Source of the DNA: an uncultured Desulfobulbaceae bacterium
GTDB lineage: Bacteria; Desulfobacterota; Desulfobulbia; Desulfobulbales; Desulfobulbaceae
Assembly (NCBI GenBank): GCA_964626235.1
Contig: CAZVDY010000067.1
Coordinates: 13,539-77,538 of the forward strand
Reading direction: 5' to 3'
DNA: 64,000 nucleotides
The notes under the pieces were generated by a model, which ran no database searches, was not told the DNA's origin, and worked only from the letters and a program-made list of their open reading frames with translations. A program made the translations under genes and the position numbers. Below, one piece after another: positions 6,573 through 42,606 of this stretch (positions are counted from its first letter, which is position 1; the number at the start of each line of letters is the position of its first letter).

Positions 6573-7829
6573 ATGCATTACTCGAAATTTGCTGACAGAT
6601 TAACCGCAGACGGCGGTATCCTGTCGCTGATGAAGGACCTGGGCACGTGCCTGACCAGCAACTCCATGATCATGATGGGAGGCGGCAACCCGGGACATGT
6701 GCCGGAAATCGAGGCGCTCGTCGCAGACCGGCTTCTTCAGATTGCCGAGGATCCGGTTCAGGTCAGGCAAGTGGCAGGCCTTTACGATCCTCCCCAGGGA
6801 AACAAACAGTTTCGCGGTCTTTTGGCCGACCTGCTCAGGCAGGAATACGGCTGGGATATTACCGCTGATAACATCTGCCTCACCTGTGGCAGCCAGGGAT
6901 CGTTTTTCCTCCTTTTCAACATGCTGGCCGGACGTTTTGCCGACGGACGCAGGAAGAAGATCCTTCTCCCCTTGGCTCCGGAATACATAGGATATGCCGA
7001 CATTGGCCTGTGCGATGATTTTTTCGCCGCCTACCTGCCCGAGGTGGAGTTGCTCGATGGCCGCTTCTTCAAATACAGGATCAACTTCGCTGAACTGGAA
7101 ATCGGTCAGGACATCGGGGCTATCTGTGTTTCACGGCCGACCAATCCGACCGGCAACGTCCTTACCGACAGGGAAATGGAACGGCTGATGGAACTGGCTG
7201 CAGCCCATCGTGTTCCCTTGATCGTCGACAACGCCTATGGAGTTCCCTTTCCGGGCATCATCTTTACCCGGGCGACCCCGGTCTGGAACGAAGACCTCGT
7301 CCTCTGCATGAGCCTGTCAAAGTTCGGCCTGCCCGGCGCCAGGACCGGGATCGTCGTGGCCAGCAGGGAGATCGCCAGCCGGCTGGCCGCTGCCAATGCA
7401 GTGCTCAACCTGGCTCCGGGCAGCCTGGGTCCCATGCTTGCCTGTAACCTGGTGGAAAGCGGAGAGATTCTCAGGCTGGCCGACCAGGTGATCAGGCCGT
7501 TCTATCACCACAGGCTGACCAGGGCCCTGGAAGCGATAACCGCCTTGTTCAGTGACATTCCGTACCGGGTGCACCTGCCGGAAGGGGCAATGTTTCTCTG
7601 GCTGTGGTTCGACGGACTGCCGGTGTCCTCGGGTACACTTTATGCCCGTCTCAAGCAACGGGGGGTGCTGGTTGTCGCCGGACACTATTTCTTCCCTGGA
7701 CTGCAACAGGAGTGGTCTCACCGGCACCAGTGTATCCGGATCACCTACTCGCAGGATGAAGACCATGTCCACCAGGGGCTGGCCATCATCGCCGACGAGG
7801 TACGCAAAATCTATAGAGAAGGTGGTTGA
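6573..7829 (+). CDS. avtA: valine-pyruvate (alanine) aminotransferase
   Basis: End-to-end resemblance to E. coli AvtA as recalled: FADRLT..GILSLMKDLG, MMGGGNPGHVPE, LAPEYIGYAD, CVSRPTNPTGNV, DNAYGVPFPGIIF, CMSLSKFGLPG (PLP Lys), FLWLWF, HQCIRI. Confidence 0.85.
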   Translation: MHYSKFADRLTADGGILSLMKDLGTCLTSNSMIMMGGGNPGHVPEIEALVADRLLQIAEDPVQVRQVAGLYDPPQGNKQFRGLLADLLRQEYGWDITADNICLTCGSQGSFFLLFNMLAGRFADGRRKKILLPLAPEYIGYADIGLCDDFFAAYLPEVELLDGRFFKYRINFAELEIGQDIGAICVSRPTNPTGNVLTDREMERLMELAAAHRVPLIVDNAYGVPFPGIIFTRATPVWNEDLVLCMSLSKFGLPGARTGIVVASREIASRLAAANAVLNLAPGSLGPMLACNLVESGEILRLADQVIRPFYHHRLTRALEAITALFSDIPYRVHLPEGAMFLWLWFDGLPVSSGTLYARLKQRGVLVVAGHYFFPGLQQEWSHRHQCIRITYSQDEDHVHQGLAIIADEVRKIYREGG

Positions 7830-7830
7830 G

Positions 7831-9921: not shown

Positions 9922-11091
9922 ATGGACCAGCCCAGCAAAGAACTGATCGATTCCATGCTGCGGATCAGGAGGGAGCTGCATCGCCATCCAGAGCTGGCCT
10001 ATGCAGAGGTCCGGACCGCGGCCCTGATCAGGCGGGAGCTCGATCGGCTCGGTATCCGTCATGTGGACGGCCTGGCAGGCGGCACCGGCATCCGGGCCGA
10101 ACTCGGAAGCGAGGAACGACTCCGGCCATGTGTCGCCCTGCGCACCGATATGGACGCCCTGCCCATCCACGAGGAAACCGGCCTGCCCTTTGCCTCCAGG
10201 GAGGCCGGCCGCATGCACGGCTGCGGCCACGACGGCCATGTGGCCATGATGCTGGGTGCGGCCATGCTCCTGAAACAGATGGATCTTCCAGGCCGGGTCG
10301 TCCTCCTCTTCCAACCGGCCGAGGAATCGGGTAACGGTGCCGCCCGGATGATCGCCGATCAGGCCCTGGAGGGTGTCTCCATGATCTTTGCCGGCCATAT
10401 AGATACCCACTATCCGGTTGGGTGTTTCACTGTGGACAGCGGCCTGATCTGTTCTTACACCGACCCATTCACCATCCTGATCCGTGGCAGGGGAGGGCAC
10501 GCAGCCAGGCCGCACGAGGCCGTTGATTCCATCGTTGTGGCCAGCAACCTGGTTATGAACATGCAGACACTCGTCTCCAGGCAGATCGATCCGTCCCATG
10601 CCGCAGTGGTCACGGTCGGCAGGTTGCATGCCGGCACGGTCCACAACGTCATTGCCGAACAGGCCGTACTCGACGGCACTGTCCGCAGTACCCATCCGGA
10701 CACCAGAAAGCGTATCCTCAACGGGTTGCAGCGGGTCATCCAGGGGGCCAGCGACATGTGCAATGCCCAGATCACCCTCACTTTTGCAGACGGTCTGCCG
10801 GCAGTGATCAATGACGAGGAGGCAAGCGTCATCGCCAGGGAGGCCGCCGTTCAGGTGGTCGGTGCAGAGGGAGTTGTCTCCCAGGGCGCACCCAGCCTTG
10901 GCGGTGAGGACTTTGCCTTTTACCTGCAGGAGATTCCCGGAGCCCTGGTCAGGTTTGGAGCGGCCAGGCCACCCGGCCAGGCAGGCCCGGCCCATTCGAG
11001 CCGTTTCGATTTCGATGAGGATGTCCTGCCACTTGGAGCCCGATGGCTGGCAACCGTGGCCAGGCAGGCACTGGATGTCATGAATCGCTGA
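9922..11091 (+). CDS. M20D-family amidohydrolase (N-acyl-amino-acid amidohydrolase/hippurate hydrolase type)
   Basis: IRRELHRHPELAYAE, MHGCGHDGH and LLFQPAEE match metal-ligand blocks of M20D peptidases. ATG 9922 lies 4 nt after the previous stop; the track ORF opens earlier at 9766. Confidence 0.85.
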   Translation: MDQPSKELIDSMLRIRRELHRHPELAYAEVRTAALIRRELDRLGIRHVDGLAGGTGIRAELGSEERLRPCVALRTDMDALPIHEETGLPFASREAGRMHGCGHDGHVAMMLGAAMLLKQMDLPGRVVLLFQPAEESGNGAARMIADQALEGVSMIFAGHIDTHYPVGCFTVDSGLICSYTDPFTILIRGRGGHAARPHEAVDSIVVASNLVMNMQTLVSRQIDPSHAAVVTVGRLHAGTVHNVIAEQAVLDGTVRSTHPDTRKRILNGLQRVIQGASDMCNAQITLTFADGLPAVINDEEASVIAREAAVQVVGAEGVVSQGAPSLGGEDFAFYLQEIPGALVRFGAARPPGQAGPAHSSRFDFDEDVLPLGARWLATVARQALDVMNR

Positions 11092-11103
11092 TCCTGTTTC
11101 TGT

Positions 11104-12219
11104 ATGAAACGCATAGATTTTGCATCAAGCCGACCATTTACCCTGGGAGTGGAACTGGAGTTTCAGCTCCTGGACAGCCGCAGCCTGGATCTTGTCCCGG
11201 CCGCTCCAGCCATTCTCCGCCGGGGCGGCTGGCTGGAGAGCAAGCGGGTGGCTCCGGAATTTCTCCGCTCCATCATCGAGATCCAGACCGGTATCTGCGG
11301 CTCCGTGGACGAGGTCGCGGAAGACCTGGCAGAGACCATCCAGATGGTGGAGCAGGTCGCCAGGGAGGACGAGGTGGTGCTTTACTCCGCCAGCCTCCAT
11401 CCCTTTGCCATTCCCGAGAAACAGCAGCTGAGCAATGGTGAACGCTACCAGCGGATCATGAATGAGCTGCAATATGTGGGCAGACAGTTCATCTCCCAGG
11501 GGCTGCACGTTCATGTGGGCGTGTCCGACCCGGAGACCGCCATCCGGCTCTGCAACGTTCTCCAGGTCTACCTGCCGCTGCTTCTGGCCCTGAGCGGATC
11601 CTCGCCCTATTTTCGCGGGCAGGATACCGGCTTTTCCTCGTATCGGACAAAACTGTTTGAGGCCTTGCCATTGGCAGGCATTGCCGGGTATATAGGCAGC
11701 TGGAAAGAATACGAGGAGGAGATCGGCATGCTCCGGGAGCGGGGCATCATTCTCCAGATCCGGGATCTCTGGTGGGATGTCCGTCCCAGCCCGGGATTCG
11801 GGACCGTTGAGGTACGGACTTGCGACATTCCCTGCCGGTTTCAGGAGGTACTAGGCCTGACGGCAATCATTCAGGCCCTGGCAGCTGCCGTGTCCGAAGG
11901 ATTGGTCCGGTCGCGACGGGTCAGCCTGCAGCTGCTTCGGTACAACAAGTGGCAGGCAGCCAGGCATGGTCTGGAAGGCCGGTTCTGCGATCCGCTCACC
12001 CTGCTCCAGGGTGGAGTCGACAGCCTGGCCGATGCCGTCCATCGGCTGCTCGAGGTCCTGGCTCCGTATTTTCGGCGATTCGCATCGACGGACCACCTCG
12101 ATGCCATCGACACGATCCTCGCAGAGGGCACCGGTGCGGCCAGACAGAGACGGTTGATGGCTGCCGGCGGTTCTTTCCGGGACATGATAACCACGCTCCA
12201 GGAGAATTACTGGTCATGA
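11104..12219 (+). CDS. ybdK: carboxylate-amine ligase, glutamate-cysteine ligase family 2
   Basis: SRPFTLGVELEFQLLD N-terminal signature, GLHVHVG and WWDVRP blocks typical of YbdK/GCS2. Confidence 0.85.
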   Translation: MKRIDFASSRPFTLGVELEFQLLDSRSLDLVPAAPAILRRGGWLESKRVAPEFLRSIIEIQTGICGSVDEVAEDLAETIQMVEQVAREDEVVLYSASLHPFAIPEKQQLSNGERYQRIMNELQYVGRQFISQGLHVHVGVSDPETAIRLCNVLQVYLPLLLALSGSSPYFRGQDTGFSSYRTKLFEALPLAGIAGYIGSWKEYEEEIGMLRERGIILQIRDLWWDVRPSPGFGTVEVRTCDIPCRFQEVLGLTAIIQALAAAVSEGLVRSRRVSLQLLRYNKWQAARHGLEGRFCDPLTLLQGGVDSLADAVHRLLEVLAPYFRRFASTDHLDAIDTILAEGTGAARQRRLMAAGGSFRDMITTLQENYWS

Positions 12220-13748
12220 GCAGAAATGGATGTGCAGTGGTTGCCACTGGTCATGAACTGGTCAGCCAGGCTGCTGCCCAGATACTGGAGGCCGGCGGCA
12301 ATGCCTTTGATGCGGCTGTGGCTGCCGGCTTTGCCGGTGCCGTGGCCGAACAGACATTGACCAGTCTGGGAGGAGGCGGTTTCCTCCTAGCCCGGACCGC
12401 CGGCATGGAGGGCCCCTGCGAGGAGATTTTTTTCGATTTTTTTGTCAATACGCCTGGCCTTGGCCGCAACCTTGTCGAAGAACCGCATTTTTTCCCGGTC
12501 ACTGTCAATTTCGGCGGATCAGTGCAGGAATTCAATATCGGACTGGGCTCGGTCGCCGTGCCCGGCACCTTGAAAGGCCTGCTCCATGTGCAGGAACGGC
12601 TCGGCAGGATGCCCCTTCGGGACGTCGTTGAACCGGCCATCCGGCTGGCCCGTGGACACCGGCTCAACGACTTTCAGGCCGGCTTCCTCCGGCTTCTTCA
12701 TCCCATCATGACCATGAGCGCCACCGGCAGGGCACTGTACGAGCCAGGCGGCAGGTACCGGAAGCCCGGAGACATCCTGAAGAATCCGGCCATGGCAGAT
12801 TTCCTTGAAGTACTGCCGGAAGACCGGGGCAGGGAATTCTACGAAGGAGAGATCGCCAGGGAAATGGTCCGGGATATGGAGGCCGAACAGGGGCTGTTGA
12901 CCATGGAGGACCTGAAACAGTACCAGGTCAGGGAACGGAAACCGCTCAGGATCAGGTACCGGGATTACACCCTGCTCACCGGTCCTCCCCCTTCCCTGGG
13001 GGGAACCCTGATCGGCCTTTCCCTGGCCATCCTGGAAAAACTGGACGTTCCGGAGCAGTGGGGAAGCGGTCCACACCTCTTGCAGACATTCGCCCTGATG
13101 CAGGAGGTTGAACGGCTCCGGGATCTGGGGATCGCTTCACCCGAGGCACTGCAACAATTCAGGGAATCGGGAGAAGTGACCGGATCGGCGGAGACTATCC
13201 GGTCGTTCAGCAGGGGCACGACCCATATCTCCGTAGCCGACGGCCAGGGCAATATCGCTTCCATGACCTGCTCCAACGGGGAGGGATCCGGCTACTTTGC
13301 CCCCCATACAGGCATCATGCTCAACAACATGATGGGCGAAGATGATCTTCATCCAGAGGGATTTCATGCCTCACCCCCGGGAATCCGGGTCAGCTCCATG
13401 ATGGCGCCTTCTGCCCTGCTCAGGGAGAACCGGGTCGAACTGGTTCTGGGCAGCGGTGGTTCCAAACGGATTCGTACAGCCATGACCCAGGTGCTGTCAC
13501 AGTATATCGATTTCCGGCGGGATATCCATAGCGCTGTCCATGCGCCGAGGCTGCACTGGGATGGAAGCAGGATCCAGGTGGAGCCGGGCTTTTCGCCCGA
13601 GGCCGTGGATCTGCTTCGCAGCCGTGCAGAGGTGAATGTCTGGGATGAACTGAATGTCTATTTCGGAGGAGTACATACCGTGGTTCCTGGCCGCGAAGGG
13701 GTGGGAGATCCCCGGCGTGGCGGGGCCGTGGCAGTGGTCGAGCTATGA
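12216..13748 (+). CDS. ggt: gamma-glutamyltranspeptidase
   Basis: ATGA overlap with the ybdK stop. EAGGNAFDAAVAAG near the N-terminus and the autoprocessing nucleophile context SRGTTHISVADGQGN. The 5' extension of the track ORF (from 11820) overlaps ybdK and is R/P-rich. Confidence 0.85.
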   Translation: MSRNGCAVVATGHELVSQAAAQILEAGGNAFDAAVAAGFAGAVAEQTLTSLGGGGFLLARTAGMEGPCEEIFFDFFVNTPGLGRNLVEEPHFFPVTVNFGGSVQEFNIGLGSVAVPGTLKGLLHVQERLGRMPLRDVVEPAIRLARGHRLNDFQAGFLRLLHPIMTMSATGRALYEPGGRYRKPGDILKNPAMADFLEVLPEDRGREFYEGEIAREMVRDMEAEQGLLTMEDLKQYQVRERKPLRIRYRDYTLLTGPPPSLGGTLIGLSLAILEKLDVPEQWGSGPHLLQTFALMQEVERLRDLGIASPEALQQFRESGEVTGSAETIRSFSRGTTHISVADGQGNIASMTCSNGEGSGYFAPHTGIMLNNMMGEDDLHPEGFHASPPGIRVSSMMAPSALLRENRVELVLGSGGSKRIRTAMTQVLSQYIDFRRDIHSAVHAPRLHWDGSRIQVEPGFSPEAVDLLRSRAEVNVWDELNVYFGGVHTVVPGREGVGDPRRGGAVAVVEL

Positions 13749-14797
13749 GCCTCTATATCATCAAACGGATCCTGCTCATGATTCCGACCCTTTTCGGAGT
13801 CATGCTGATCACCTTCGTGGTCACCCAGTTCGTTCCCGGCGGCCCTGTTGAGCGGATGCTCGCCCAACTCGAAGGCCAGGGGGCCGGGGGAGAGACCGCA
13901 GCGGTCACCGGGACCGGGCTGTACCAGGGGAACAGAGGGCTGGACCAGGATCGGGTGGAACAACTGAAAAAACTGTACGGGTTTGACAAACCACCACTGC
14001 AGCGTTTCCTCTCCATGATGGCCAGCTACCTGGTTTTTGATTTCGGGGAATCCTACTACCACCACATGAGCGTAGTCGAGCTGGTCGTCTCCAAACTCCC
14101 TGTGTCCATGTCTTTGGGATTGTGGACATTCCTCATAGTCTACTCGGTCTGCATTCCCCTGGGAATCGCCAAGGCGGTCCGAGATGGCTCCCGGTTCGAC
14201 ATGGTGACCAGCACCATTATTCTCATTGGCTATGCCATTCCCGGCTTTGTCCTGGGTATTGTGCTCATTGTCCTTTTTGGCGGCGGCTCGTTCTGGAACA
14301 TTTTTCCACTCAGGGGCCTGGTTTCGGACAACTGGGCCGAACTGGGACTCATCGACAAGATCCTGGACTATCTCTGGCACATGGTTCTGCCCATCATTTC
14401 CTCCACGGTCGGCAGCCTGGCGGTCATGACGCTGCTGACCAAGAATTCCTTTCTCGAGGAGATCCGCAAACAGTACGTGATGACGGCCAGGGCCAAGGGG
14501 TTGCCAGAAAAGCAGGTACTGTACAAGCACGTTTTCCGTAATGCCATCATCCCCATCATTACCGGTTTTCCAGGGTCCTTCATAGCCGCCTTTTTCACCG
14601 GCAGCCTGCTCATCGAGACCATATTTTCCCTGGACGGTATGGGACTGCTGGCCTACGAGTCGGTCCTGAACCGTGATTATCCGGTCGTCCTGGGAACGCT
14701 CTACTTTTTCACCATCATCGGCCTGGTTTCGCGCCTGCTCTCGGATCTGAGTTATGTGCTCGTCGATCCCCGGATCAGTTTCGAAGGCCTGCAATAG
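13745..14797 (+). CDS. yejB: ABC transporter permease, YejB-like (peptide/microcin C type)
   Basis: N-terminus YIIKRILLMIPTLFGVMLITFVVTQFVPGGPVE is colinear with E. coli YejB as recalled. ATGA overlap with the ggt stop. Confidence 0.85.
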   Translation: MSLYIIKRILLMIPTLFGVMLITFVVTQFVPGGPVERMLAQLEGQGAGGETAAVTGTGLYQGNRGLDQDRVEQLKKLYGFDKPPLQRFLSMMASYLVFDFGESYYHHMSVVELVVSKLPVSMSLGLWTFLIVYSVCIPLGIAKAVRDGSRFDMVTSTIILIGYAIPGFVLGIVLIVLFGGGSFWNIFPLRGLVSDNWAELGLIDKILDYLWHMVLPIISSTVGSLAVMTLLTKNSFLEEIRKQYVMTARAKGLPEKQVLYKHVFRNAIIPIITGFPGSFIAAFFTGSLLIETIFSLDGMGLLAYESVLNRDYPVVLGTLYFFTIIGLVSRLLSDLSYVLVDPRISFEGLQ

Positions 14798-14803
14798 AGA
14801 ACC

Positions 14804-15838
14804 ATGAAGACCGGAGCTATTCGCAACAGCCTTGCCAGGCGCCGCTGGCGCAGTTTCCGCAAAAACCGGCGCGGTTACTACAGCCTGATCCTGTTCTCCA
14901 TACTCTTCGTCATCAGCCTGTTTGCCGAGGTGGTCAGCAACGACAAGCCCATCCTGGTCCTGTACGAAGGATCATATTATTTCCCGCTCTTCAGGACGTA
15001 TCCGGAAACAGTGTTTGGAGGGGACTTCGACACAGAGACCGATTACCGGGATCCATACATCCTCCGGCGGCTGAGCACGAACGGCAACCGGGTCTATTTT
15101 CCGCCCAATCCCCATTCCTACAACTCAATCAACCTGGAACTGGATGTACCGGTCCCCTCGCCGCCGACCCGAATCAACCTCCTGGGAACAGACGACCGGG
15201 GCCGGGATGTCCTGGCCCGTATTATTTACGGCTTCAGGCTCTCTGTGCTCTTCGGATTCGCGCTGACCGGGATCGGCACCCTGCTCGGCATCGTAGCCGG
15301 TGCGGTCCAGGGATACTTTGGCGGCCGGACAGACCTGTTCTTTCAGCGGTTCATCGAGATATGGAGCGCCATGCCCGAACTCTATCTGCTGATTATCTTT
15401 GCCTCGATCTTCAAGCCGAGTATCCTGCTCCTGCTCATTCTCCTGTCCATGTTCGGTTGGATGGGCCTGTCAGACTACGTGCGGGCCGAGTTTCTCAAGG
15501 GCAGGAACATGGAATATGTCAAGGCGGCCAAGGCCCTCGGGGTAAACAACTTTACCATCATGTACAGGCACCTGCTGCCCAACGGCATGACACCAGTGAT
15601 CACCTTTCTGCCCTTCCGCATGTCCGGGGCCATCCTGGCCCTCACCAGCCTGGACTTTCTTGGTCTTGGGGTGCCGCCTTCCACACCAAGTCTTGGCGAA
15701 CTGCTCGCCCAGGGTAAGGCAAATATCGACGCCTGGTGGCTCTCGTTGTCCACCTTTCTCGTCCTGGTGGGAACGCTTGTACTGTTGATCTTTATCGGCG
15801 AGGCATTGCGGGAGGCGTTCGATCCACGTAAACAGTGA
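14804..15838 (+). CDS. yejE: ABC transporter permease, YejE-like
   Basis: RWRSFRKNRRGYYSL, NDKPILV, LLGTDDRGRDVLARIIYG, FIEIWSAMP and DYVRAEFLKGRN are colinear with E. coli YejE as recalled. Confidence 0.85.
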   Translation: MKTGAIRNSLARRRWRSFRKNRRGYYSLILFSILFVISLFAEVVSNDKPILVLYEGSYYFPLFRTYPETVFGGDFDTETDYRDPYILRRLSTNGNRVYFPPNPHSYNSINLELDVPVPSPPTRINLLGTDDRGRDVLARIIYGFRLSVLFGFALTGIGTLLGIVAGAVQGYFGGRTDLFFQRFIEIWSAMPELYLLIIFASIFKPSILLLLILLSMFGWMGLSDYVRAEFLKGRNMEYVKAAKALGVNNFTIMYRHLLPNGMTPVITFLPFRMSGAILALTSLDFLGLGVPPSTPSLGELLAQGKANIDAWWLSLSTFLVLVGTLVLLIFIGEALREAFDPRKQ

Positions 15839-15858
15839 GAAGAAACGAACCGTTCACC

Positions 15859-15925
15859 GGACAGGAATTTTGTTCCGTCCACCCGATGATCATCTCCATT
15901 TTTTCCCGCAAGGGGCAGGGAAAAA
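15859..15925. other. two hairpins in the convergent intergenic gap (possible non-canonical terminators)
   Basis: GGACAGGAA/TTCCGTCC (15859-15880). TTTTTCCC/GGGAAAAA (15900-15925) abuts the stop of the acidic ORF. Neither has a clean 3' U-tract. Confidence 0.3.
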
Positions 15926-18900
15926 TCAGGAAGTCAGCTCCTTTTTCAGGGTCTCTATCTCCTTCTTCAGAGCTGACCTGATCTCTGCGAATTCACTACG
16001 CATCAGCCTGAGCAGCCGATCTTCTTCAGCGTCAGGAGAAGCAGCCGCCTTCTGTTCCGGAACCGTTTTTTCCTCTGCAGGTCTGGCCGCTGGAGCGGGC
16101 TCCTGTTCTTCACTGCCGGGTGCACTGGTATTCTGGCGGAGGATATCAGCCAGCAGGTTCTGGTGCCAGGTGGTGAAACGCGTCACAGCCTCCACCAGGG
16201 TCTCTGATCCCTGTCCGGGATCCTTGAGACGCTGATAGAGATAGTCCATCAGCTCTTCGGTGCCTTCCCCTACGGCTGCATCGTAATCCCGGGGGATCGA
16301 GGTCACCACGGTATTCATCAGGGTCAGAAGCACCTTCTGGGTTGTATCCTCGATGTACTGCTGCTGGACCTGGATGATGTTGGTGGTCTGGTCGACGAAC
16401 TCCTCTCTCGGCGTGCTGCCGAATCCGGCAATGGCACTGCCCAGGGCCTGCAAATGTTCCTTCCGGGTAGACTGATCATCGGAATCAACTGGTTCTTCAG
16501 CCTCCAGGGCGGCAGCGGTTTCTGTCTCCATTTCCGCGGCCGCTGACTCCGCGCTTTCCGCCTCCTGGTCGGGAAAGAAGAAGTTGAGCTTCTCCTCCAG
16601 TTCCACTGTCGGAGTATCGTCATCCTCCTCGACCTCTCCACCCAGTTCCTCCTCCATGTCCACGTCAACGGCGTCGGCTGGCGTTTCGGTCCTGCCAGAC
16701 TCGGTCAACAATTCATCCTCGGGTTCAACGGCAGCCAGGGCCGGCTCGACAGTGTCGCTCTCGTCTTCTTCTTGCTCCTCGGCTGCCGGAGATTCAAGCT
16801 CACCGAAGTCCACATCAGGCAGGTCTGTTTCGGCGACAACAGGCTCAATCTCATCTTCTTCACTACTGCTGAGCAGGGAATCGAGCCGCTCCTCGATTCC
16901 ACCGATGGACTCCTCGGAAAGGGCCAGATCAAGCTCTTCCTCTTCCTCGTCAGCCGGTTCTCCGTCAACAGGTTCTTCAGCCACCTCTCCGGCTGCCTGG
17001 TCAAAAAGTGTATCCAGACTTTTTTCTATCTCCTCGATGGATTCTGCGTTTTCCATCTCTCCGGCCGGGGGAAGAACATCCTCGTCTGCCAGCGCCGGTA
17101 TCACGGCTCCATCCTGGAAAAAATCGTCCTCTGCCTCTTCTTCATCCGTCTTGTCAGGCTCTGCTCCCGTTTGAACTGGAGCCTCCACGTCCGTATCCGT
17201 GTCGGAGCCAAAGAAGCGATCCAGGCGCTCTTCCAGTTTTTTCGCAGCTTCGCTGTCAAAATTCAGATCCTGCTCCTCTGCAACATCCTCTGCCACATCG
17301 GAAAGGGCAGGGGTCACAGACTCGTCAAATGCAAGTTCTGATTGGGCAGTATCTCCCTCGGTGGAGATTGTTTTCGTCCCATCCTCATCTGCCTCCTCTA
17401 CAGAACTCTCGTCAAAAAAGGAATCCAGGTGCTGTGCCAGTTCATCGGCCGGTAGCCTGGCCTCGGTATCCACCTCTCTTTCTTCGTCCTCGTCCGGGGT
17501 AACAGAGGAAAGAGCCGGCATGATCTCTTCCGTGGTATCGTCCTCGTCACTGAAGACCGAATCCAACTGGAGATCGATATCCTCAACAACAGCCTCCCCA
17601 GGCTTCTTCTCCGTTGCCGCCTCTTCCAAATCATCGAGCGAAAGGGCAGAAGGAAGGTCTTCAAGCTGTTCCTCCACATCCCCATTCAGATCCAGGCCAA
17701 GCTCATCCGCATTCTTGTCATCCAACTCAAAGGTCTGGGTATCCAGGCTGGCGAAATCTTCTTCACTGTCATCAGAGAAGAGGAGATCGAGCTGTTCCTC
17801 GATATGCTCCTGGGGAGAGATATCGTCTCGCTCCTCGAGTTTTTCCGGAACATCCAGGCCACTGAGGGCTGCTGTCACCTCATCGCCACCCAATTCCTCG
17901 CCAAGAAAATCATCTGCCACCTCGTCTGCAATAGGCTGGATGGCCTCGGGATCAAGGAGATCATCAAATCCATCTTCTTCTGCTCGCTCTTCCTCCTCCT
18001 CCGAAACTTCTTCAAAGAATGCCATCAGGGTGTTGTCCAGGTCTTCGGTGAGTTCGTCTTCCTCTTCTTCCTCACTTTCCATGGAGGCAAACAGCGGCTC
18101 TTCCTCCTCTATGTCGGGGACCGCCTTGTCCCCGGGCTCCACATCCTCCAGGGCAACAGGCGTTGATTCTATTTTCCTGCCGACTTCTTCTGTCACGGCC
18201 GTTCCGCCGGCAGCGATGAGAGCCTTGAGATTGTTGAGCCGTTCCACTTGGCTGACGAGGATTTCCTGGCGTTCCTGGTCGCCCAGATTTTCGTCTTTGA
18301 GCAATCGTTCCAATCCTTTGTAGAAAGAATGAAGAAGAATGAAGGCCTCGGGATGGGCATCGGCCTTCTCGTCTGCAATGTAGTTGCCCAACACTCCGAG
18401 CCCCTGGAGAAGAACCAAGGCAGCCTTGTCGTCCTTGACCGATTCTGTCAGTTGGCCGACCTGTTCCCGGAACTTGTCCAGGCCGTTATCGGTAACCTCC
18501 CATTCCAGGCCGAGAATCGTGGCTTTCAACCGGGTGAGCGGTTCCTGGCCGCTCAACGAAAGTGCGTCCTTGTCCAGGTTGCCCATCTCTGGAGATTCAT
18601 TGGTGCCGGCTGCTTCCAGCTGGCTGATCTGATACTGGAGGATCTTGAATTTTCTCACGTCGGTCTTCAGTAGGATGCTGATCTCCTCCCCGTTCATATC
18701 CGGGGAAGAGACAATTTTTTCAAAATCGTAAAAAAAGGTCAGGAGAAGCTTGATGGCGTTGGGATGGGCGTAGGCACCTTCATCGCGCAGATAACGTCCG
18801 ATCTTGTCCAGGCCCTGGAGATACACCTGGGCGACCTTGTCACCTTCCCAGACCTGCTGCAGTTCCACGATCTCGTCCGCCAGCTCCTGCAGGATATCGT

Positions 18901-19105
18901 CGCTGATTTCCCAGTCAAGGGACAGGATGATGGATTTCAGTCGTGTCAGGGGCGACTCTTCCTCACCGGTGAACTCGAACAGGTCGATATCCACCGTATC
19001 GAACGATTCGTCTGCGAACAGGGTGAGATCTTCCACCTCGTCCAGGGAATTGACAGGGTCCTTCTGCGGAGTGCTTTTCATGGGCTGGTCGGTGTTGGAT
19101 ACCAC
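15926..19105 (-). CDS. 1059-aa hyper-acidic protein: two homologous N-terminal domains, about 575-aa D/E-rich repeat region, helical C-terminal domain and terminal coiled-coil-like tail
   Basis: Single long ORF starting 12 nt after the mglA stop. Clear internal domain duplication and repeated motifs. The plus-strand Ser-rich ORFs here are mirror images of GAx/GAG codons. Confidence 0.8.
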   Translation of the reverse strand: MVSNTDQPMKSTPQKDPVNSLDEVEDLTLFADESFDTVDIDLFEFTGEEESPLTRLKSIILSLDWEISDDILQELADEIVELQQVWEGDKVAQVYLQGLDKIGRYLRDEGAYAHPNAIKLLLTFFYDFEKIVSSPDMNGEEISILLKTDVRKFKILQYQISQLEAAGTNESPEMGNLDKDALSLSGQEPLTRLKATILGLEWEVTDNGLDKFREQVGQLTESVKDDKAALVLLQGLGVLGNYIADEKADAHPEAFILLHSFYKGLERLLKDENLGDQERQEILVSQVERLNNLKALIAAGGTAVTEEVGRKIESTPVALEDVEPGDKAVPDIEEEEPLFASMESEEEEEDELTEDLDNTLMAFFEEVSEEEEERAEEDGFDDLLDPEAIQPIADEVADDFLGEELGGDEVTAALSGLDVPEKLEERDDISPQEHIEEQLDLLFSDDSEEDFASLDTQTFELDDKNADELGLDLNGDVEEQLEDLPSALSLDDLEEAATEKKPGEAVVEDIDLQLDSVFSDEDDTTEEIMPALSSVTPDEDEEREVDTEARLPADELAQHLDSFFDESSVEEADEDGTKTISTEGDTAQSELAFDESVTPALSDVAEDVAEEQDLNFDSEAAKKLEERLDRFFGSDTDTDVEAPVQTGAEPDKTDEEEAEDDFFQDGAVIPALADEDVLPPAGEMENAESIEEIEKSLDTLFDQAAGEVAEEPVDGEPADEEEEELDLALSEESIGGIEERLDSLLSSSEEDEIEPVVAETDLPDVDFGELESPAAEEQEEDESDTVEPALAAVEPEDELLTESGRTETPADAVDVDMEEELGGEVEEDDDTPTVELEEKLNFFFPDQEAESAESAAAEMETETAAALEAEEPVDSDDQSTRKEHLQALGSAIAGFGSTPREEFVDQTTNIIQVQQQYIEDTTQKVLLTLMNTVVTSIPRDYDAAVGEGTEELMDYLYQRLKDPGQGSETLVEAVTRFTTWHQNLLADILRQNTSAPGSEEQEPAPAARPAEEKTVPEQKAAASPDAEEDRLLRLMRSEFAEIRSALKKEIETLKKELTS

Positions 19106-19117
19106 AACTTCCGTCCT

Positions 19118-19723
19118 CTATAAAAGTTTCTTCTGTATGGATACAACCGTAAGGGAGATTATTTTTTTAAGTGTTTCTGCTACGTTATAGCCTGTCAGCG
19201 CACTTGCCTCATACGCGGGCACGCGCAATTTCGAATTGAGGTCCTTTTCCAGCACACTGGATGGCAGGATCGGGACGCCCTGGTTTCTGAGATCGACCTT
19301 GTTGTACTGCAGGACCAGGGGAATACGGAAGATCGATTCCTTGTATCCGAGCAAGTTTTCGTGCAACTGATTCAGGGAGCGGATATTTTTCTCCCGCATC
19401 GACTCCTGGGCATCAGCGACGAACACGATCCCGTCCACTCCCTTGAGCACGAGCTTCCTGGTGGCATTGTACTTGACCTGTCCAGGCACGGTATAGAGTT
19501 GGATCTTCAGTTCATAGCCCTTGATCTGGCCCATGTCGAAAGGCAGAAAATCGAAAAACAGGGTCCGGTCGCCATGGGTCTTCAGGCTGACCATTTCCGA
19601 TTGGATCTGCTTGCTGAATTTCCGGTTGATGTATTCGAGGTTTGTTGTCTTTCCGCCCCGACCAGGACCGTAATAGACAATCTTCACCTGAACGATTTTT
19701 TCGCGTAGATTGATGAAACTCAA
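19118..19723 (-). CDS. mglA: MglA-type Ras-like small GTPase
   Basis: Near-colinear with M. xanthus MglA as recalled: MSFIN, KIVYYGPGRGGKTTNL (P-loop), DRTLFFDFLP, LYTVPGQV (switch II Gln), LKGVDGIVFVADAQ, QYNKVDL (NKxD). Confidence 0.9.
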   Translation of the reverse strand: MSFINLREKIVQVKIVYYGPGRGGKTTNLEYINRKFSKQIQSEMVSLKTHGDRTLFFDFLPFDMGQIKGYELKIQLYTVPGQVKYNATRKLVLKGVDGIVFVADAQESMREKNIRSLNQLHENLLGYKESIFRIPLVLQYNKVDLRNQGVPILPSSVLEKDLNSKLRVPAYEASALTGYNVAETLKKIISLTVVSIQKKLL

Positions 19724-19789
19724 GATTATCTCCTGCTCTGCTTCACTGCATTAACTGGATGGCCTCCTTCACTCTGATCCCTGGCAGCT

Positions 19790-20191
19790 CTAGCTGGCTC
19801 TGGTCCAGAGCTTCCTGATTCTGTCGATAGCCTCGACCACGTTCAGCCTGAGAAAACCAAGAGAAATATCTTTGCCGAACATGGATATCAGGAGCAGTTC
19901 ATCGTCAATCTTGGAAAAATGAATATTGCAGTCTGTTCCCTTGTGAAAAAGAAGGGAGAACTCCTGCTCTCCAACGAGCTTTGCCATGGCATCGACAGTG
20001 GCAAAATTGCCCGCAGCCAGAGCAGCAAAGGAATAGACATCATATTTTGAACTTCCATTGTCCTTGGCCGTGATGATGTTGCCGGCCATGTCGATGATGA
20101 TTACACAGTCGACTCCGATCTTGATCAACTTCTCGTTTAAAATTTCATCAATTTTTTCAAGTTGTTCCTGACTAACAACTCCATAGTTCAT
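19790..20191 (-). CDS. mglB: MglB-type Roadblock/LC7 GTPase-activating protein
   Basis: IIIDMAGNIITA, FAALAAGNFATVDAMAKLVGEQEFSLLFHKG and ISLGFLRLNVVEA parallel M. xanthus MglB as recalled. Start taken at MNYGVV; the track ORF opens at 20224. Confidence 0.85.
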   Translation of the reverse strand: MNYGVVSQEQLEKIDEILNEKLIKIGVDCVIIIDMAGNIITAKDNGSSKYDVYSFAALAAGNFATVDAMAKLVGEQEFSLLFHKGTDCNIHFSKIDDELLLISMFGKDISLGFLRLNVVEAIDRIRKLWTRAS

Positions 20192-20306: not shown

Positions 20307-20451
20307 ACTGATCATTTTCATTTTTTTCCCTTTGCAGGATTTGATCACCTGATTTGTATCTATGTGCTTAGCCGATCGAAAACAGAAACGAGGCAGACAG
20401 CACCCGCTACTGCCCACCTGCCCGACATCAGGACCTTCCATCCAAATCCGG

Positions 20452-20739
20452 TCACTGTTGCCGGATCTTGTGCTTAAACCGTTCGTTGACAGCATAGACA
20501 AAGGCCAGCACCTCGGCTACAGCCTGGTACATCTCTGGTGGAATTTCGTCACCGACCTCTACCTTTGCCAATAACTCGAGGAGATCCGGATCTTCTCTGA
20601 CATGGACACCGGCAGCCCTGGCAGCCTCGATGATCTTTCTGGCAACCAGCCCCGAACCCTTGGCGACAACCTTGGGGACAGCGGCCCGGTTACCGTCATA
20701 GAGCAGGGCGACAGCCTGTTCCCGTTTCCCCGCGCTCAT
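20452..20739 (-). CDS. stand-alone FlhB/YscU C-terminal (CC subdomain)-like protein
   Basis: AVALLYDGNRAAVPKVVAKGSGLVARKIIEAARAAGVHVREDPDLLELL...IPPEMYQAVAEVLAFV matches the segment that follows NPTH autocleavage in FlhB. No TM region and no NPTH. Start uncertain: ATG 20739, while the track ORF opens at 20859. Confidence 0.75.
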   Translation of the reverse strand: MSAGKREQAVALLYDGNRAAVPKVVAKGSGLVARKIIEAARAAGVHVREDPDLLELLAKVEVGDEIPPEMYQAVAEVLAFVYAVNERFKHKIRQQ

Positions 20740-20842
20740 GGAAGGCTTCCCGGCTTGTTGAAACCGGAGTCCGGCCCTGCGGAACGATCCGCAAACAACG
20801 TGGTCTGCGACACTGGCAGTGCTGTAACAAAACAGTATTCCA

Positions 20843-22291
20843 TCATGCCGTGGTCTCAATCACACCGGATCCATGCCTGTGCAGGTTCTCCGACAGGACC
20901 CGCTCCGGCGGTTCGACACCGGTCAGGAACTGAACAGCCGTTCTGTTGCCCTGGGACAGCCCTGCCAAGAGCTCATCCCGGAAGCTGGCCAAAAACATGG
21001 CCCGTTCCCTGTCTGCGGTGTGGAAACAGATGGCAAGCCCATCAGCAGATTGCCTGATATCGATCTGCAGATCGCCCAACCCTTCCAGGGAAAGGTGCAG
21101 GCGGCACTCCTTTTTTCCGTCGTTGTCCGGCTGTTCATCGGCAGCGGACTGCCGGCGATCCATGACCAGGTATCCCTGGTCCAGAAAGGGGAGGGCCAGG
21201 GGATAGAAAACGACTCCCTGTTCGGCAAAACGGGCCTTCACTATTTGGAACAACTCGATGATCCGGAGGGCTTCCCCGGCCTGTTCACGGATCTCAGGAC
21301 TACCTGCATCCCGCTCCACTTCAGCCATGGCATGTTTCAAAGACTCTTCGGCCTGCCGGAGATCGCCTTGCAGCAGGGCATGTTCCTGCTGGAGACCCAA
21401 CCTGTGCAGATACCGTTGCAGGTCAGACCCACGAATAGAAGGAGAAGGGAAAGAGGGGGCCGGCCTGCTCAGCCGGTCGGTCAGCGCCCTGAAAAGCGTG
21501 TGCAGTCTATCCCGGACAAGAAGATTCTTTTCCGCACCGGCTCCAGGCATCCCTGGCTCCCTGTTCCTGTCAGTCAGCAGGGAGACCAGTTCCCTGGTCA
21601 ATTCCCCGACCTGGTCGTTCTGGGGCAACTGCCTGGCATATCGTCCGAGCCGTTCGGCCAGGGCATGGTCTGCTATTCCTGGGGAACCCGGCTTGTTCTG
21701 TTCAAGGAGCTGCTGAACATATTCCCTAAGCTCCTCCAGCAGGCCGCGGGCAGGCGACGCCTGTGGTCCGGAAACAGCTGCCCCGGGCCGCAGGCTACCG
21801 GGCAGGCGTCCCATGTCCTGGAGAAATAGCCGGACACTCCTGCTCAGATCAGGATGCTCTTCTGTGTGCTCTGCCAACTGCACGATGAGCTGCCCCAACC
21901 TGTTTTGCCTGGCCAGGAGCGGGAGAGAACGACTCAAGTGGAGCTGTCCGGAGGGCTGGACGATCTGCAGGGTAAGCTTGGGCCTGATGGCGGTGACCTG
22001 GAGATCCAGTTTCTGACCTGCATGAAAACGGAGCCTTGACTGAATGGTGAACTGTTCTTGTCCCAGGGTCAGGATCCATTGCCCTTGGCGGTTTTTGCCA
22101 CTGACAACAGCCTGCAGGAACTGTCCTGGAACAAGGCCAGGCTTGTTTCCCTGTGTGCCGGACAGACCGGTGAGGGTGAGCAGCTCGCCGATGCCGGCCA
22201 TCATCGGGGGGCGCGCCTGTCCGGCACCGGCAGGGATCAGTCGACCCGTATTTTTTCCCGGAGTTGCCGACGTTGCTCCTGCAGGCAGCAT
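20843..22291 (-). CDS. FliK-like (flagellar hook-length control C-terminal domain) protein
   Basis: C-terminal CRLHLSLEGLGDLQIDIRQSADGLAICFHTADRERAMFLASFRDELLAGL resembles the Flg_hook/FliK C-domain. An alternative start at 22204 (MMAGIGELL) would remove the 55-nt overlap with the PilZ gene. Confidence 0.55.
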   Translation of the reverse strand: MLPAGATSATPGKNTGRLIPAGAGQARPPMMAGIGELLTLTGLSGTQGNKPGLVPGQFLQAVVSGKNRQGQWILTLGQEQFTIQSRLRFHAGQKLDLQVTAIRPKLTLQIVQPSGQLHLSRSLPLLARQNRLGQLIVQLAEHTEEHPDLSRSVRLFLQDMGRLPGSLRPGAAVSGPQASPARGLLEELREYVQQLLEQNKPGSPGIADHALAERLGRYARQLPQNDQVGELTRELVSLLTDRNREPGMPGAGAEKNLLVRDRLHTLFRALTDRLSRPAPSFPSPSIRGSDLQRYLHRLGLQQEHALLQGDLRQAEESLKHAMAEVERDAGSPEIREQAGEALRIIELFQIVKARFAEQGVVFYPLALPFLDQGYLVMDRRQSAADEQPDNDGKKECRLHLSLEGLGDLQIDIRQSADGLAICFHTADRERAMFLASFRDELLAGLSQGNRTAVQFLTGVEPPERVLSENLHRHGSGVIETTA

Positions 22292-22914
22292 GAAATTATC
22301 TGATCCCGTACTTTTTGCTCGATACTATCAAAATGAAAGGCGATCTGATAGCGGTTTTTCCGCATTCGATAGACCCGGACAACATGCCCCATGCATTCTA
22401 TGGGCTGTTTTTGCTCCGGGAGTTGCAGCATCAACTGAATGCGACTCTTGTTTTCCGGTGGCTGACTGAACAGCGCCAGTACGCCGCTGCCGCTGAGATC
22501 AACGGTTTCACCGGTCAGCTCCCAGGCCTTTTTGCGGATCTCTTTGGGACCTGGTTGGTAGCGGGCAACAATGGGTAGCTGGACATTCACCCGGAAATAC
22601 TCCCGTAAGGATTCCGGCCTGATCGACTCCTGAGCAGTCAGGAGGAGGCTCCGCTCGTCCACCAATCCGTCCACAGTGGCCAGCAAGGTAATGCCGGAAT
22701 CGTTTTCCTGCTTCACGGTCAGCATACAGTTCGTGCCCTGGTCAAGGGCAAGGTCTTCCAGGTTGTTGCTGGGAAAGACCAGGGTGAACTGAGGAGCCTT
22801 GTTCTTCTTCAGGACGCTCTTCAGTCGGCGCCGCTCATCCGTGCCGACCGGAATATCGATCAGGACGATTGAGTTGTCGCGGAGTCTGTTCAGTGTGTCC
22901 TCTATACCAGCCAC
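22237..22914 (-). CDS. PilZ-domain c-di-GMP receptor (YcgR-like architecture)
   Basis: RxxxR (REYFR) followed by D-x-S-x-x-G (DLSGSG) about 30 residues later, with an N-terminal PilZN-like beta domain. Confidence 0.75.
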   Translation of the reverse strand: MAGIEDTLNRLRDNSIVLIDIPVGTDERRRLKSVLKKNKAPQFTLVFPSNNLEDLALDQGTNCMLTVKQENDSGITLLATVDGLVDERSLLLTAQESIRPESLREYFRVNVQLPIVARYQPGPKEIRKKAWELTGETVDLSGSGVLALFSQPPENKSRIQLMLQLPEQKQPIECMGHVVRVYRMRKNRYQIAFHFDSIEQKVRDQIISCCLQEQRRQLREKIRVD

Positions 22915-34529: not shown

Positions 34530-34567
34530 TCAGCCATCCTGGCCCGGATGCGGGGAAGGAACGGGAA

Positions 34568-35437: not shown

Positions 35438-35443
35438 GCGGTG

Positions 35444-37748: not shown

Positions 37749-37757
37749 GTCCGGCTG

Positions 37758-39591: not shown

Positions 39592-39599
39592 CCCTCTCC

Positions 39600-42587: not shown

Positions 42588-42606
42588 TCAGGGTGTGCCG
42601 GAGGGC

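Follow-up and report, generated by a model that had tools for sequence, protein, structure and literature searches.

In a conserved mglB-mglA-X unit, the third gene encodes a 1059-residue, hyper-acidic and mostly disordered protein, here called X, and its reading as an MglA-switched scaffold is the one to which we incline. X is probably an MglA-dependent multivalent scaffold, or an effector through which the polarity switch acts. The unit lies on the minus strand of the 64,000-nucleotide stretch of DNA analysed here (the window), from an uncultured Desulfobulbaceae bacterium, and its three open reading frames are all present in the ORF listing where an earlier note on this DNA had placed them: mglB (19790..20191, minus strand; 133 aa), encoding the Roadblock/LC7 GAP partner of MglA, mglA (19118..19723, minus strand; 201 aa), encoding a Ras-like GTPase, and gene X (15926..19105, minus strand), delimited by its ORF, composition and synteny.

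The mglB gene begins with the ATG at 20191, a start favoured over a GTG at 20224, which would extend it by 11 codons, because homolog gene calls are 132-136 aa long, and mglA begins with a TTG preceded by a GGAG-type ribosome-binding site. The ATG that the earlier note had placed 12 nt after the mglA stop is in fact a GTG, preceded by GAGGA; the first ATG of X is residue 9 (position 19081, 36 nt past the mglA stop), and it aligns with the start used in nearly all homologs. Across 81 loci the mglA stop and the X ATG are separated by a median of 37 nt, and an in-frame upstream alternative to this conserved ATG is absent in most of them. The start of X in the window is thus ambiguous between 19105 and 19081. 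Upstream of the trio, a terminator-like hairpin (20391..20419, minus strand; a 12-bp stem, then a T-rich tail) lies between an FlhB-C-like gene and mglB and is followed by an AT-rich leader of ~200 nt, where GC goes down to 0.46; these features suggest that mglB-mglA-X is a separate transcription unit, in which the three genes would be co-transcribed. The surrounding region has no more terminators than shuffling predicts.

Judged by their sequences, the MglA and MglB of the window are genuine. MglA is matched over its full length to M. xanthus MglA (6hjh_A; phmmer E 6e-53), in an alignment that retains the P-loop GPGxxGKTT, the arginine of DRTLFFDF, the MglA-specific TVPGQ and the NKxD motif, and MglB matches Pfam Robl_LC7 (E 9.6e-6), the NCBIfam MglB model (E 1.9e-14, below that model's equivalog cut-off) and the M. 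xanthus MglB structure 6h5b_B (phmmer E 2.5e-15). Copies of MglA directly upstream of X are 80-95% identical (80/80 loci), and wherever a locus extends far enough, a copy of MglB that is 85-95% identical precedes mglA. At 133 aa, the window MglB is shorter than the M. xanthus MglB chains in the PDB (160-192 aa), a difference that corresponds to the C-terminal helix by which MglA is regulated in M. xanthus.

The strongest result concerns the linkage of X to mglA, on which the earlier proposal depended: it is very strongly conserved, while the surrounding genes take several different forms. X-specific peptide patterns retrieved 80 loci from species-representative, named genomes that are nearly all Desulfobulbales, including cable bacteria; in all 80 an mglA homolog lies directly upstream of X on the same strand, and in each of the 77 that extend far enough, mglB precedes mglA. 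The trio was likewise found in 8/8 further metagenomic loci retrieved via the X protein itself, which, listed beside the window's own contig, comprise four large relatives (~37-43% N-terminal identity) and four distant mini-homologs. This 100% linkage describes X loci with an adjoining mglA, the direction surveyed being from X to mglA and not from mglA to X; M. xanthus mglBA works without an X-type neighbour, and X is therefore not a universal part of the mglBA module. Many Desulfobulbus-type loci carry FliK-like, FlhB-C-like and PilZ genes upstream of the trio and an ABC permease gene downstream. In cable bacteria the trio is flanked by LeuRS, LptE and adenine deaminase genes on one side and by Sdh or ThiG on the opposite side, and in a third group TatD and YggS lie upstream, with CoaD and RsmD downstream. 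The flanking genes differ completely between lineages and the trio alone is kept; in the large-protein lineages its neighbours do not point consistently to pili, flagella or gliding.

X is a genuine gene rather than a chance ORF, since the protein has 973 cluster representatives at E<=1e-3, is recorded in identical form on a 127.6-kb ENA metagenome contig, and has folded parts that AlphaFold modelled with confidence. It contains 29% D+E and 6.5% K+R overall, with a net charge of -238 and a calculated pI of 4.05, and residues 306-875 reach 38% D+E with 4% K+R; the acidity described in the earlier note was thus real, but its figure of roughly 30-50% D+E in 50-residue windows narrows to a measured 30-44% over residues 301-850. 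As that note had also held, X has no transmembrane segment (highest 19-residue Kyte-Doolittle mean, 1.09), and it is wholly cytoplasmic. There was no match at all to Pfam and NCBIfam, nothing significant among PDB sequence profiles and no significant match for the folded domains in two Foldseek searches against PDB, so that no well-characterised family emerged, and no describing paper was found in the papers searched. X founds or belongs to an undescribed family, with no name, solved structure or paper found, built around a five-helix bundle of ~115 residues (the "B domain"); the acidic part varies widely in length, in proteins of 666-2800 aa. Of the earlier suggestion of an MglA-coupled scaffold of an undescribed type, the coupling is upheld by the strict linkage and the novelty by the lack of a family or paper match, whereas the structural likeness to HubP/FimV falls away; the polar-scaffold function is a hypothesis, and X could as well regulate the GTPase cycle.

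The earlier note had overlooked much of the anatomy of X: its three helical bundles, homologous to one another, its bipartite repeat of short motifs and its terminal helix with a coiled-coil-like heptad pattern. Near the N-terminus, column conservation marks an acidic-hydrophobic peptide (18956..19048, minus strand; residues ~20-50, EDLTLFADESFDTxDVDLFEF), in which D26, L27, F30, E33, F35, L42 and F45 are invariant or at least 90% conserved. It is almost without regular secondary structure, except for a short helix at residues 17-25, and has a pLDDT of 64-81 in the full-length model, which hints that it may dock on a bundle. B1 (18596..18952, minus strand; residues 52-170), with five helices and the signature PLxxLKxxILSLDWEI, is the family's most conserved part and was predicted at pLDDT 85-97 in two independent AlphaFold runs. 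B2 (18188..18541, minus strand; residues 189-306; pLDDT 93-98) is its tandem duplicate (hhalign probability 99.9%, E 2e-37), and B3 (16127..16480, minus strand; residues 876-993; five helices, pLDDT 90-97), which occurs in most X orthologs, a third, divergent copy, matched by hhalign to B1 and B2 with probabilities of 97.1% and 97.6% (E 6e-11 and 4e-12); an HMM from B3 columns matches B1 at 4.6e-9 and B2 at 2e-7. Overall, pLDDT exceeds 90 in all three bundles (92-98 for the tandem pair of five-helix bundles), and on these profile comparisons they share a common origin. The C-terminal amphipathic helix (15932..16033, minus strand; residues 1025-1058, LLRLMRSEFAEIRSALKKEIETLKKEL) was modelled by AlphaFold as a single helix (pLDDT 85-92) with a coiled-coil-like heptad pattern, its 3-4 hydrophobic spacing being read directly off the sequence, and the pattern ...LRxxhxxEhxxLRxEL is retained at the C-terminal end in most large relatives and in every mini-homolog that was aligned.

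Between B2 and B3, composition, pLDDT and motif statistics define an acidic disordered region of ~570 aa (16481..18187, minus strand; residues 307-875) with a bipartite repeat, [VI]xPAL[SA], followed after 23-26 aa (48 aa in the sixth unit) by [IL]E[EK]xLDx[FL]F. X has about eight LD helices (starting at residues 356, 435, 510, 556, 624, 693, 737 and 836), and six of these have an xPAL(S/A) motif upstream as their partner (starting at residues 412, 486, 530, 599, 670 and 788), and the six repeat units were aligned. In 197 relatives the motifs are enriched 12-30-fold over shuffles, with 609 occurrences of the LD motif (20.4 +/- 4.9 in shuffles) and 530 of the PAL motif (45.4 +/- 7.1), and the PAL-to-LD spacing peaks at 25-29 aa (208/419 cases). 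Cable-bacterial orthologs multiply the LDSFF core, one of them (L049) carrying 64 copies where shuffles give 7.3. The pLDDT of the region is <50 apart from short helices at the LD motifs, its only helical islands of raised pLDDT (45-76), which hints at docking of LD helices on the bundles. The coding DNA of the region contains no DNA-level tandem repeat, and the repeat units are therefore old and diverged. The acidic region could also work mainly through charge or length, without motif binding.

In the distant mini-homologs (211-316 aa), which occupy the same position after mglB-mglA and whose genes start 10-12 nt after mglA, the acidic region is wholly absent, and what is left is one LD motif, an acidic-aromatic amphipathic helix of the form (I/L)ExxLDxFF, one B domain, a linker and the heptad-patterned terminal helix. 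By this comparison of layouts, the window X is an expanded form of a minimal architecture. The mini-homolog operons continue with genes for a Zn-ribbon/HAMP protein, a REC-PATAN response regulator and an MshE-type T2SSE ATPase, which, as annotated, are a motility or pilus-like setting. The window carries homologs of three of those operon genes, at a distance.

Several known systems resemble X in part. According to two reports, RomX of the M. xanthus RomR/RomX complex is an adaptor in the MglA polarity module that binds MglA-GTP and joins MglA to an acidic-tailed partner (10.1101/2024.02.20.581209; PMC13408092). Like X it is all-helical and lacks enzymatic motifs, but it is a single 11-kDa three-helix bundle (PDB 8ZNA) against the five helices of the B domain, it is not encoded beside mglA in M. 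xanthus, and it has none of the repeats, disordered region or coiled-coil-like terminal helix of X; Foldseek with the B domain gave no hit to 8ZNA among the matches listed, and sequence similarity was also absent. SgmX, AglZ and FrzS of M. xanthus are reported to be large cytoplasmic scaffold-like MglA effectors, localised or activated by MglA-GTP, through which the switch acts on type IV pili or on the machinery of gliding (PMC7519303, PMC7668184, PMC9811614). They are TPR or receiver plus coiled-coil proteins encoded outside the mglBA operon, whereas X adjoins mglA and has no TPR or REC domain in Pfam. In design, X also resembles the eukaryotic focal adhesion pairing of paxillin LD motifs with FAT and GIT-PBD four-helix bundles, in that short acidic amphipathic LD-type helices on a disordered protein occur together with helical bundles, although LD-B binding in X is hypothetical and the consensus differs (LDxFF in X, LDxLLxxL in paxillin). 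FAT, GIT1-PBD, vinculin and talin bundles were non-significant Foldseek neighbours (E 0.08 to >1, low TM-scores), and the likeness is offered as an analogy, with no homology claimed.

Several X homologs are labelled "pilus assembly protein FimV" by JGI, which would make X a polar hub of the FimV/HubP type; this seems to us highly improbable. HubP of Vibrio and FimV of Pseudomonas, which are credited with assembling several clients at a pole, are, like X, large proteins with a highly acidic, repeat-containing central region, but they are anchored in the membrane and carry a LysM domain in the periplasm and a FimV/TPR-like motif at the C-terminus, their repeat units differ from those of X and they are not known to be coupled to MglA/MglB. 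The cytoplasmic X has no LysM domain, transmembrane segment or FimV C-terminal or core motif (Pfam/NCBIfam, hydropathy), and the name FimV probably arose because acidic repeats matched on composition. X was rejected as a structural FimV/HubP member on the lack of LysM, transmembrane segment and FimV C-terminal motif; a hub-like function, by analogy and not homology, is possible.

X could instead regulate the MglA nucleotide cycle, as a lineage-specific replacement for RomR/RomX, RomY or MglC whose B domain is GEF-like, co-GAP or GAP-inhibiting on MglA or MglB. This is a possible but rather unlikely account, which draws on the size and simplicity of the ~220-aa minimal family member, typical of small regulators, on its position 10-12 nt after mglA, on a linkage as strict as that of MglB, on the binding of MglA-GTP by RomX, a small helical bundle (10.1101/2024.02.20.581209), and on the short window MglB, whose missing C-terminal-helix role another factor might supply. 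It would leave three bundles, an acidic spacer of ~570-2500 residues and 8-64 motifs superfluous, yet lineages expand these, and Foldseek found no similarity of the B fold to RomX or Roadblock domains. That X merely shares an operon and is unrelated to MglA signalling, acting as a polyanionic cation buffer, entropic spacer, cytoskeletal or junction protein, is improbable. Its charge, the widely varying length of the acidic part and flanking genes that tie it to no specific machine would fit such a role, but the gene order survives complete neighbourhood turnover, down to mini-homologs without an acidic region, which is hard to explain without functional coupling, and it is the bundles, motifs and terminal helix that are conserved, rather than charge as such.

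In the scaffold model that we favour, X would be made together with MglB and MglA, and its terminal helix would dimerise or oligomerise it. One or more B domains would bind MglA, most likely in its GTP form, by analogy with the three-helix-bundle protein RomX of M. xanthus (bioRxiv 10.1101/2024.02.20.581209), although a relation of the B domain to RomX or other known MglA partners was not detectable by Foldseek. The repeated LD helices would offer multivalent docking sites for clients from the motility or polarity machinery or, alternatively, for B domains on adjacent X molecules, and X would thereby act as an MglA-switched scaffold at the cell pole or at cell-cell junctions.

In the window, three genes follow one another on the minus strand of the ORF listing, as the earlier note had described: mglB (19790-20191 from its ATG), encoding a 133-aa Roadblock/LC7 protein, mglA (19118-19723), encoding a 201-aa protein from a TTG start with a GGAG ribosome-binding site ahead, and a large gene, here called X (15926-19105, alternative start 19081), encoding a hyper-acidic protein of 1059 aa. 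In phmmer-type matches against PDB sequences, the 201-aa protein aligned over its full length with M. xanthus MglA (6hjh_A, E 6e-53), and it also matched T. thermophilus MglA (3t12_A, E 1.6e-49). The alignment retains both the G1 P-loop GPGRGGKTT and the G4 motif NKVD (NKxD), and the G3 Thr instead of Asp (YTVPGQ) and the intrinsic arginine (GDRTLFFDF) match the M. xanthus residues; the role of the TVPGQ and DRTLFFDF residues is taken from PMC3000849 and PMC3199381. Judged by the full-length match and by these residues, the protein is a true MglA. The product of mglB, which ends 66 nt before the mglA start, scores over the gathering score of Pfam Robl_LC7 (E 9.6e-6) and matches M. xanthus MglB (E 2.5e-15), and because it reaches 54 bits with the NCBIfam MglB equivalog model, under the 200-bit cut-off, we regard it as a diverged MglB.

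The earlier note placed an ATG 12 nt after the mglA stop; the 12-nt spacer is correct, but the codon that follows is a GTG with GAGGA ahead of it. The first ATG of X is residue 9, 36 nt past the mglA stop, and it lines up with the start in nearly all homologs, in which the distance from the mglA stop to the X ATG has a median of 37 nt (81 loci) and an in-frame upstream alternative is absent from most loci; with a GTG and its GAGGA on one side and a family-aligned ATG on the other, the start of X is 19105 or 19081. In the protein, D+E make up 29% and K+R 6.5%, the net charge is -238 and the calculated pI is 4.05. Its acidity was rightly recognized from the sequence, although the estimate of roughly 30-50% D+E per 50 residues narrows to a measured 30-44% per 50-residue window over residues 301-850, and the reported lack of a TM segment agrees with a top 19-residue hydropathy mean of 1.09. 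Three minus-strand genes whose ends overlap by 55 and 17 nt lie upstream of mglB; they encode a protein with a PilZ domain (22237-22914), a FliK-like protein containing a Flg_hook domain (20843-22291) and an FlhB C-terminal domain that stands alone (20452-20859; TIGR00789-like). A terminator-like hairpin at 20391-20419, after the FlhB-C-like gene, is separated from mglB by an AT-rich leader of ~200 nt, and the gaps inside the mglB-mglA-X trio are short (66 nt, then 12 or 36 nt); on account of this arrangement, co-transcription of the trio is likely. A search for a sigma-70 consensus promoter upstream of mglB found none, the sole match lying inside X and within chance expectation.

To place X in its genomic setting, we searched the GTDB representative genome of each species with two peptide patterns specific to X, which gave 151 genomes with a relative and 80 loci that were kept and compared by tblastn with the window proteins. 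MglA (80-95% identical) was encoded directly upstream of X on the same strand at 80/80 loci, MglB (85-95% identical) upstream of MglA at all 77 loci long enough to tell, and metagenomic loci carried mglB-mglA followed by an X-type gene in 8/8 cases; these counts come from a survey conditioned on X, so that they say that X always has mglA, the converse being outside its reach. The conserved linkage that the earlier note proposed to look for is thus present throughout. Almost all of the surveyed named genomes carry labels of Desulfobulbaceae, of Desulfobulbus relatives or of cable bacteria. The flanks vary: FliK-like, FlhB-C-like and PilZ genes were found upstream at about half of the loci (the three preceding mglB in about half of the Desulfobulbus-type loci) and were absent from all cable-bacterial loci, where one flank carries LeuRS, LptE and adenine deaminase genes and the opposite flank Sdh or ThiG. 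Four more large relatives (~37-43% N-terminal identity) kept the trio, preceded by TatD, YggS and DUF6811 genes and followed by those for CoaD and RsmD. The most distant relatives, here called mini-homologs, are metagenome proteins of 211-316 aa from uncultured organisms; they consist of an N-terminal LD motif (ELENRLDELFGDD; an (I/L)ExxLDxFF helix), one helical bundle of the type present in X, a Pro/Ala-rich linker and a terminal helix, and they were encoded just after a Roadblock-Ras gene pair in 4/4 examined cases, 10-12 nt downstream in three. The trio alone persists through this turnover of the neighborhood, a classical signature by which we regard it as a functional unit; the link of X to mglA is as tight as that of mglB itself, across the sampled named genomes and the distant mini-homologs.

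Downstream of the mini-homologs are genes for Zn-ribbon(/HAMP) and REC-PATAN proteins and MshE-type T2SSE ATPases, or for a TPR protein. At one such locus (L085), three genes sharing an operon with mglB-mglA and the mini-homolog have counterparts dispersed in the window: a PATAN/DUF4388 protein (5076-5807, plus strand; sharing 33% identity with the PATAN portion of the L085 REC-PATAN regulator), an uncharacterised protein of ~330 aa (36744-37748, minus strand; 28% identical along the whole length, E 1e-44) and a Zn_ribbon_4+HAMP protein (39600-40715, minus strand). This distribution suggests a wider set of MglA-associated genes. The GltJ Zn-ribbon domain binds MglB in M. xanthus, as mentioned in the RomX preprint (10.1101/2024.02.20.581209), and a published survey of MglA neighborhoods found that group 1 contexts 'vary widely', with PATAN genes only occasional (PMC4316618). 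Elsewhere in the window, a 664-aa protein with at least 12 MORN repeats (7552-9546, plus strand; Pfam E 1e-124) is encoded near the PATAN gene, and a protein of 1138 aa (45775-49191, plus strand), which has multiple TPR repeats and an NfrA_C domain at its C-terminus, had no detectable relation to X. The ORF run at 34454-45514 consists of crude longest-ORF picks, mostly lacking a Pfam match, with uncertain gene calls.

Two AlphaFold models of X, one of residues 1-314 built with 19 sequences and one of the full length built with 80, agree on its architecture. An acidic-hydrophobic conserved peptide at residues ~20-50 (EDLTLFADESFDTxDVDLFEF; pLDDT 64-81 in the deeper model) is followed by two predicted five-helix bundles, B1 (residues 52-170) and B2 (residues 189-306; both pLDDT 92-98), a long acidic region predicted to be disordered (residues 307-875; pLDDT <50 apart from short helices), a further five-helix bundle, B3 (residues 876-993; pLDDT 90-97), and a lone terminal helix (residues 1025-1058; pLDDT 85-92). 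Sequence comparison identifies B2 as a tandem duplicate of B1 (hhalign E 2e-37) and B3 as a third, divergent copy of the same B domain, its comparison with B1 and B2 by hhalign giving a probability of 97% (E 6e-11 and 4e-12) and an HMM built from the B3 columns recovering B1 at 4.6e-9 and B2 at 2e-7. The B-domain signature PLxxLKxxhLShDWEI...AHP, with invariant columns L56, L61, W65, I67, Y95 and Y105, is matched by B1 and B2 (family E down to 1e-147) and is also carried by the mini-homologs. In the terminal helix, hydrophobic residues are spaced by 3-4, typical of a coiled coil, and the pattern LRxxhxxEhxxLRxEL stands at the C-terminus of most relatives, large and mini forms alike.

The region between B2 and B3 (residues 306-875, 38% D+E) contains repeated motifs. 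Six units in X pair a PAL motif ([VI]xPAL[SA]) with an LD motif ([IL]E[EK]xLDx[FL]F) with 23-26 residues between the two motifs in all but the sixth unit, where there are 48, and two extra LD motifs lacking a PAL partner bring the LD total to eight. Across 197 relatives, the LD pattern was counted 609 times, where composition-preserving shuffles gave 20.4 +/- 4.9, and the PAL pattern 530 times, where shuffles gave 45.4 +/- 7.1; the distance from PAL to the next LD peaked sharply at 25-29 residues (208/419 cases). The LD motif is present in large and mini forms, and LD motifs are the sites of the sole AlphaFold helices in the disordered region (pLDDT 45-76). At the DNA level we found only trivial tandem repeats of 6-15 nt, which rejects DNA tandem repetition as a source of the protein repeats and indicates that the units are old. 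Cable-bacterial orthologs of 1290-2800 aa (up to 35% D+E) have multiplied a shortened core (LDSFF, DDFFSMDE), with 64 core motifs against 7.3 expected in the ortholog of Ca. Electronema halotolerans. This protein contains ~25 near-identical tandem repeats (e.g. ...ASLSLDDADMLGAE...DDFFSMDE...PDAEAAA), and expanded genes of this kind can be seen at L049 (the Ca. Electronema halotolerans locus; 10037-18391) and L061 (9992-16798), among other cable-bacterial loci. A single-copy conserved island, (L)DPEAIQPIADEVADDFL, lies at residues 385-405 of X (~17891-17953, minus strand), is modeled as a helix (pLDDT ~64) and is shared by homologs including P0002 and P0012, with D398 at least 90% conserved.

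The earlier note suggested that X may be of a type not yet described, and database comparisons bear this out for its folded domains. Scans of X against Pfam and NCBIfam returned zero families at E<=0.01, and these scans and a Pfam scan of the mini-homologs gave only sub-threshold chance matches (E up to 1); PDB sequences searched with X alone (phmmer) and with profiles A1 and A3 yielded nothing significant (best E 0.017), nor did Foldseek against the PDB with the N-terminal and full-length models (best E 0.06-0.08). Vinculin, FAT-like, Hpt, generic and de novo designed bundles appeared as Foldseek neighbors and were rejected as homologs on their non-significant E values. The fold and repeat motif of X are new to Pfam, NCBIfam and the PDB, and none of the papers found in literature searches on MglA in Desulfobulbus or cable bacteria, and on FimV in cable bacteria, describes the X family. 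Its members are nevertheless numerous: a profile of residues 1-314 matched the representatives of 973 clusters (50% identity) at E<=1e-3, of which 410 reached E<=1e-30. Among the 973, the top 150 were 180-1535 aa long and 143 of these were new, nearly all of 560-1535 aa and matched at the N-terminus, the remainder being partial and previously found; one of the 143, on a 127.6-kb ENA metagenome contig, is identical to X in the window. The C-terminal 207 residues found no homolog in a set of 5.8 billion proteins, and the C-terminal domain was recovered only via orthologous loci and profile-profile comparison. Named members belong to Desulfobulbaceae, Desulfobulbus, Desulfogranum, Desulforhopalus, Candidatus Electrothrix and Candidatus Electronema, and a second copy of X was not found within the 64-kb window. 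The family is systematically fragmented and mislabelled in public annotation. Most homologs from the first protein search (P0001-P0029) are partial and stop at contig ends, one Desulforhopalus gene appears as two separate ORFs, of 513 and 417 aa (P0185/P0186), and two homolog fragments were assigned to bins labelled Bacteroidales and Krumholzibacteriia, probably through mis-binning.

On the sequence evidence, X is most likely an undescribed, non-homologous third protein of the MglA/MglB polarity module. The closest functional analogues, by analogy, would be RomX/RomR, the effectors SgmX, AglZ and FrzS, and the hubs HubP and FimV, whose defining features (REC, TPR, LysM, TM, FimV motifs, three-helix RomX fold) X lacks. 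In RomR, an N-terminal REC domain precedes Pro-rich and Glu-rich regions, whereas X has helical bundles at its N-terminus and no Response_reg match; TPR-type MglA effectors (SgmX, Bdellovibrio Bd2492) carry TPR repeats, and X matches no TPR family. RomX, which binds MglA-GTP (10.1101/2024.02.20.581209), is a small three-helix bundle of ~90 aa (PDB 8ZNA), in contrast to the five helices in ~115 aa of the B domain, and 8ZNA was not among the Foldseek matches listed for the X models. A relation to MasABK, the M. xanthus mglBA neighbors, was rejected, as these are membrane/lipoprotein components and divergently transcribed (PMC3546991). Several homologs of X are labelled 'pilus assembly protein FimV' by JGI, and X shares with FimV/HubP an acidic repeat region (6-8 units in X), a feature that alone does not define the family; FimV/HubP proteins, however, have an N-terminal periplasmic LysM domain, a TM anchor and a core/C-terminal motif (NCBIfam/TIGRFAM models), and with all of these missing from X its membership in that family was rejected as very improbable.

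Among the functions that X could have, we lean slightly towards an MglA-coupled scaffold or effector, much as the earlier note had suggested with its polar scaffold. That X instead regulates the MglA GTPase cycle seems unlikely, since its valency (three bundles, 8-64 motifs and a polyanionic spacer) fits a scaffold that concentrates partners better than a catalytic regulator, and it is quite doubtful that a gene kept next to mglA at every surveyed locus encodes a co-operonic polyanion functionally unrelated to its neighbors.

For X as a scaffold or effector, we infer a mechanism that starts from observed features, i.e. the domain and motif architecture, the homology of the bundles and the strict genomic coupling. 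Only the LD helix, the B domain and the terminal helix are common to mini and large forms, which places the core function in these three elements. Our best guess is that the B domain would bind MglA or MglB, with RomX as precedent, that the terminal helix would mediate oligomerisation, and that the large forms would add valency. An LD-type helix precedes the bundle by ~25 residues both in the mini form and at B3, and LD helices may for this reason bind to B domains in cis or trans, a possibility at which the pLDDT values of the models hint. A fuller version, which we put forward tentatively and consider improbable as a whole, would make X a GTPase-switched, self-associating multivalent scaffold, in which LD helices bind B domains of neighbors or clients, the terminal helix dimerises, and the GTP/GDP state of MglA, set by MglB, controls assembly. 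If so, X would be, by convergence, a bacterial counterpart of the paxillin LD-motif/FAT-bundle logic of eukaryotic focal adhesions and could form a multivalent, possibly condensate-like polar or junctional hub, and along the filament of cable bacteria the larger forms (1300-2800 aa, dozens of motifs) could arrange motility or the polarity of cell-cell junctions.

To our knowledge, MglA/MglB is the best-understood bacterial spatial switch, and nearly all that is known of its partners comes from Myxococcus and Bdellovibrio. X is a concrete candidate for readout or regulation of the MglA switch outside the myxobacteria, from a family currently annotated as 'hypothetical' or, misleadingly, as 'FimV', and often truncated or split in assemblies. 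X also exemplifies, in nature, a bacterial protein whose long disordered stretch carries short linear motifs, an architecture that is still poorly documented in prokaryotes. While current understanding is not overturned, the finding makes polarity control in Desulfobulbales and cable bacteria accessible to experiments, and X provides an entry point to how polarity and motility are controlled in cable bacteria, for which genetics is lacking.
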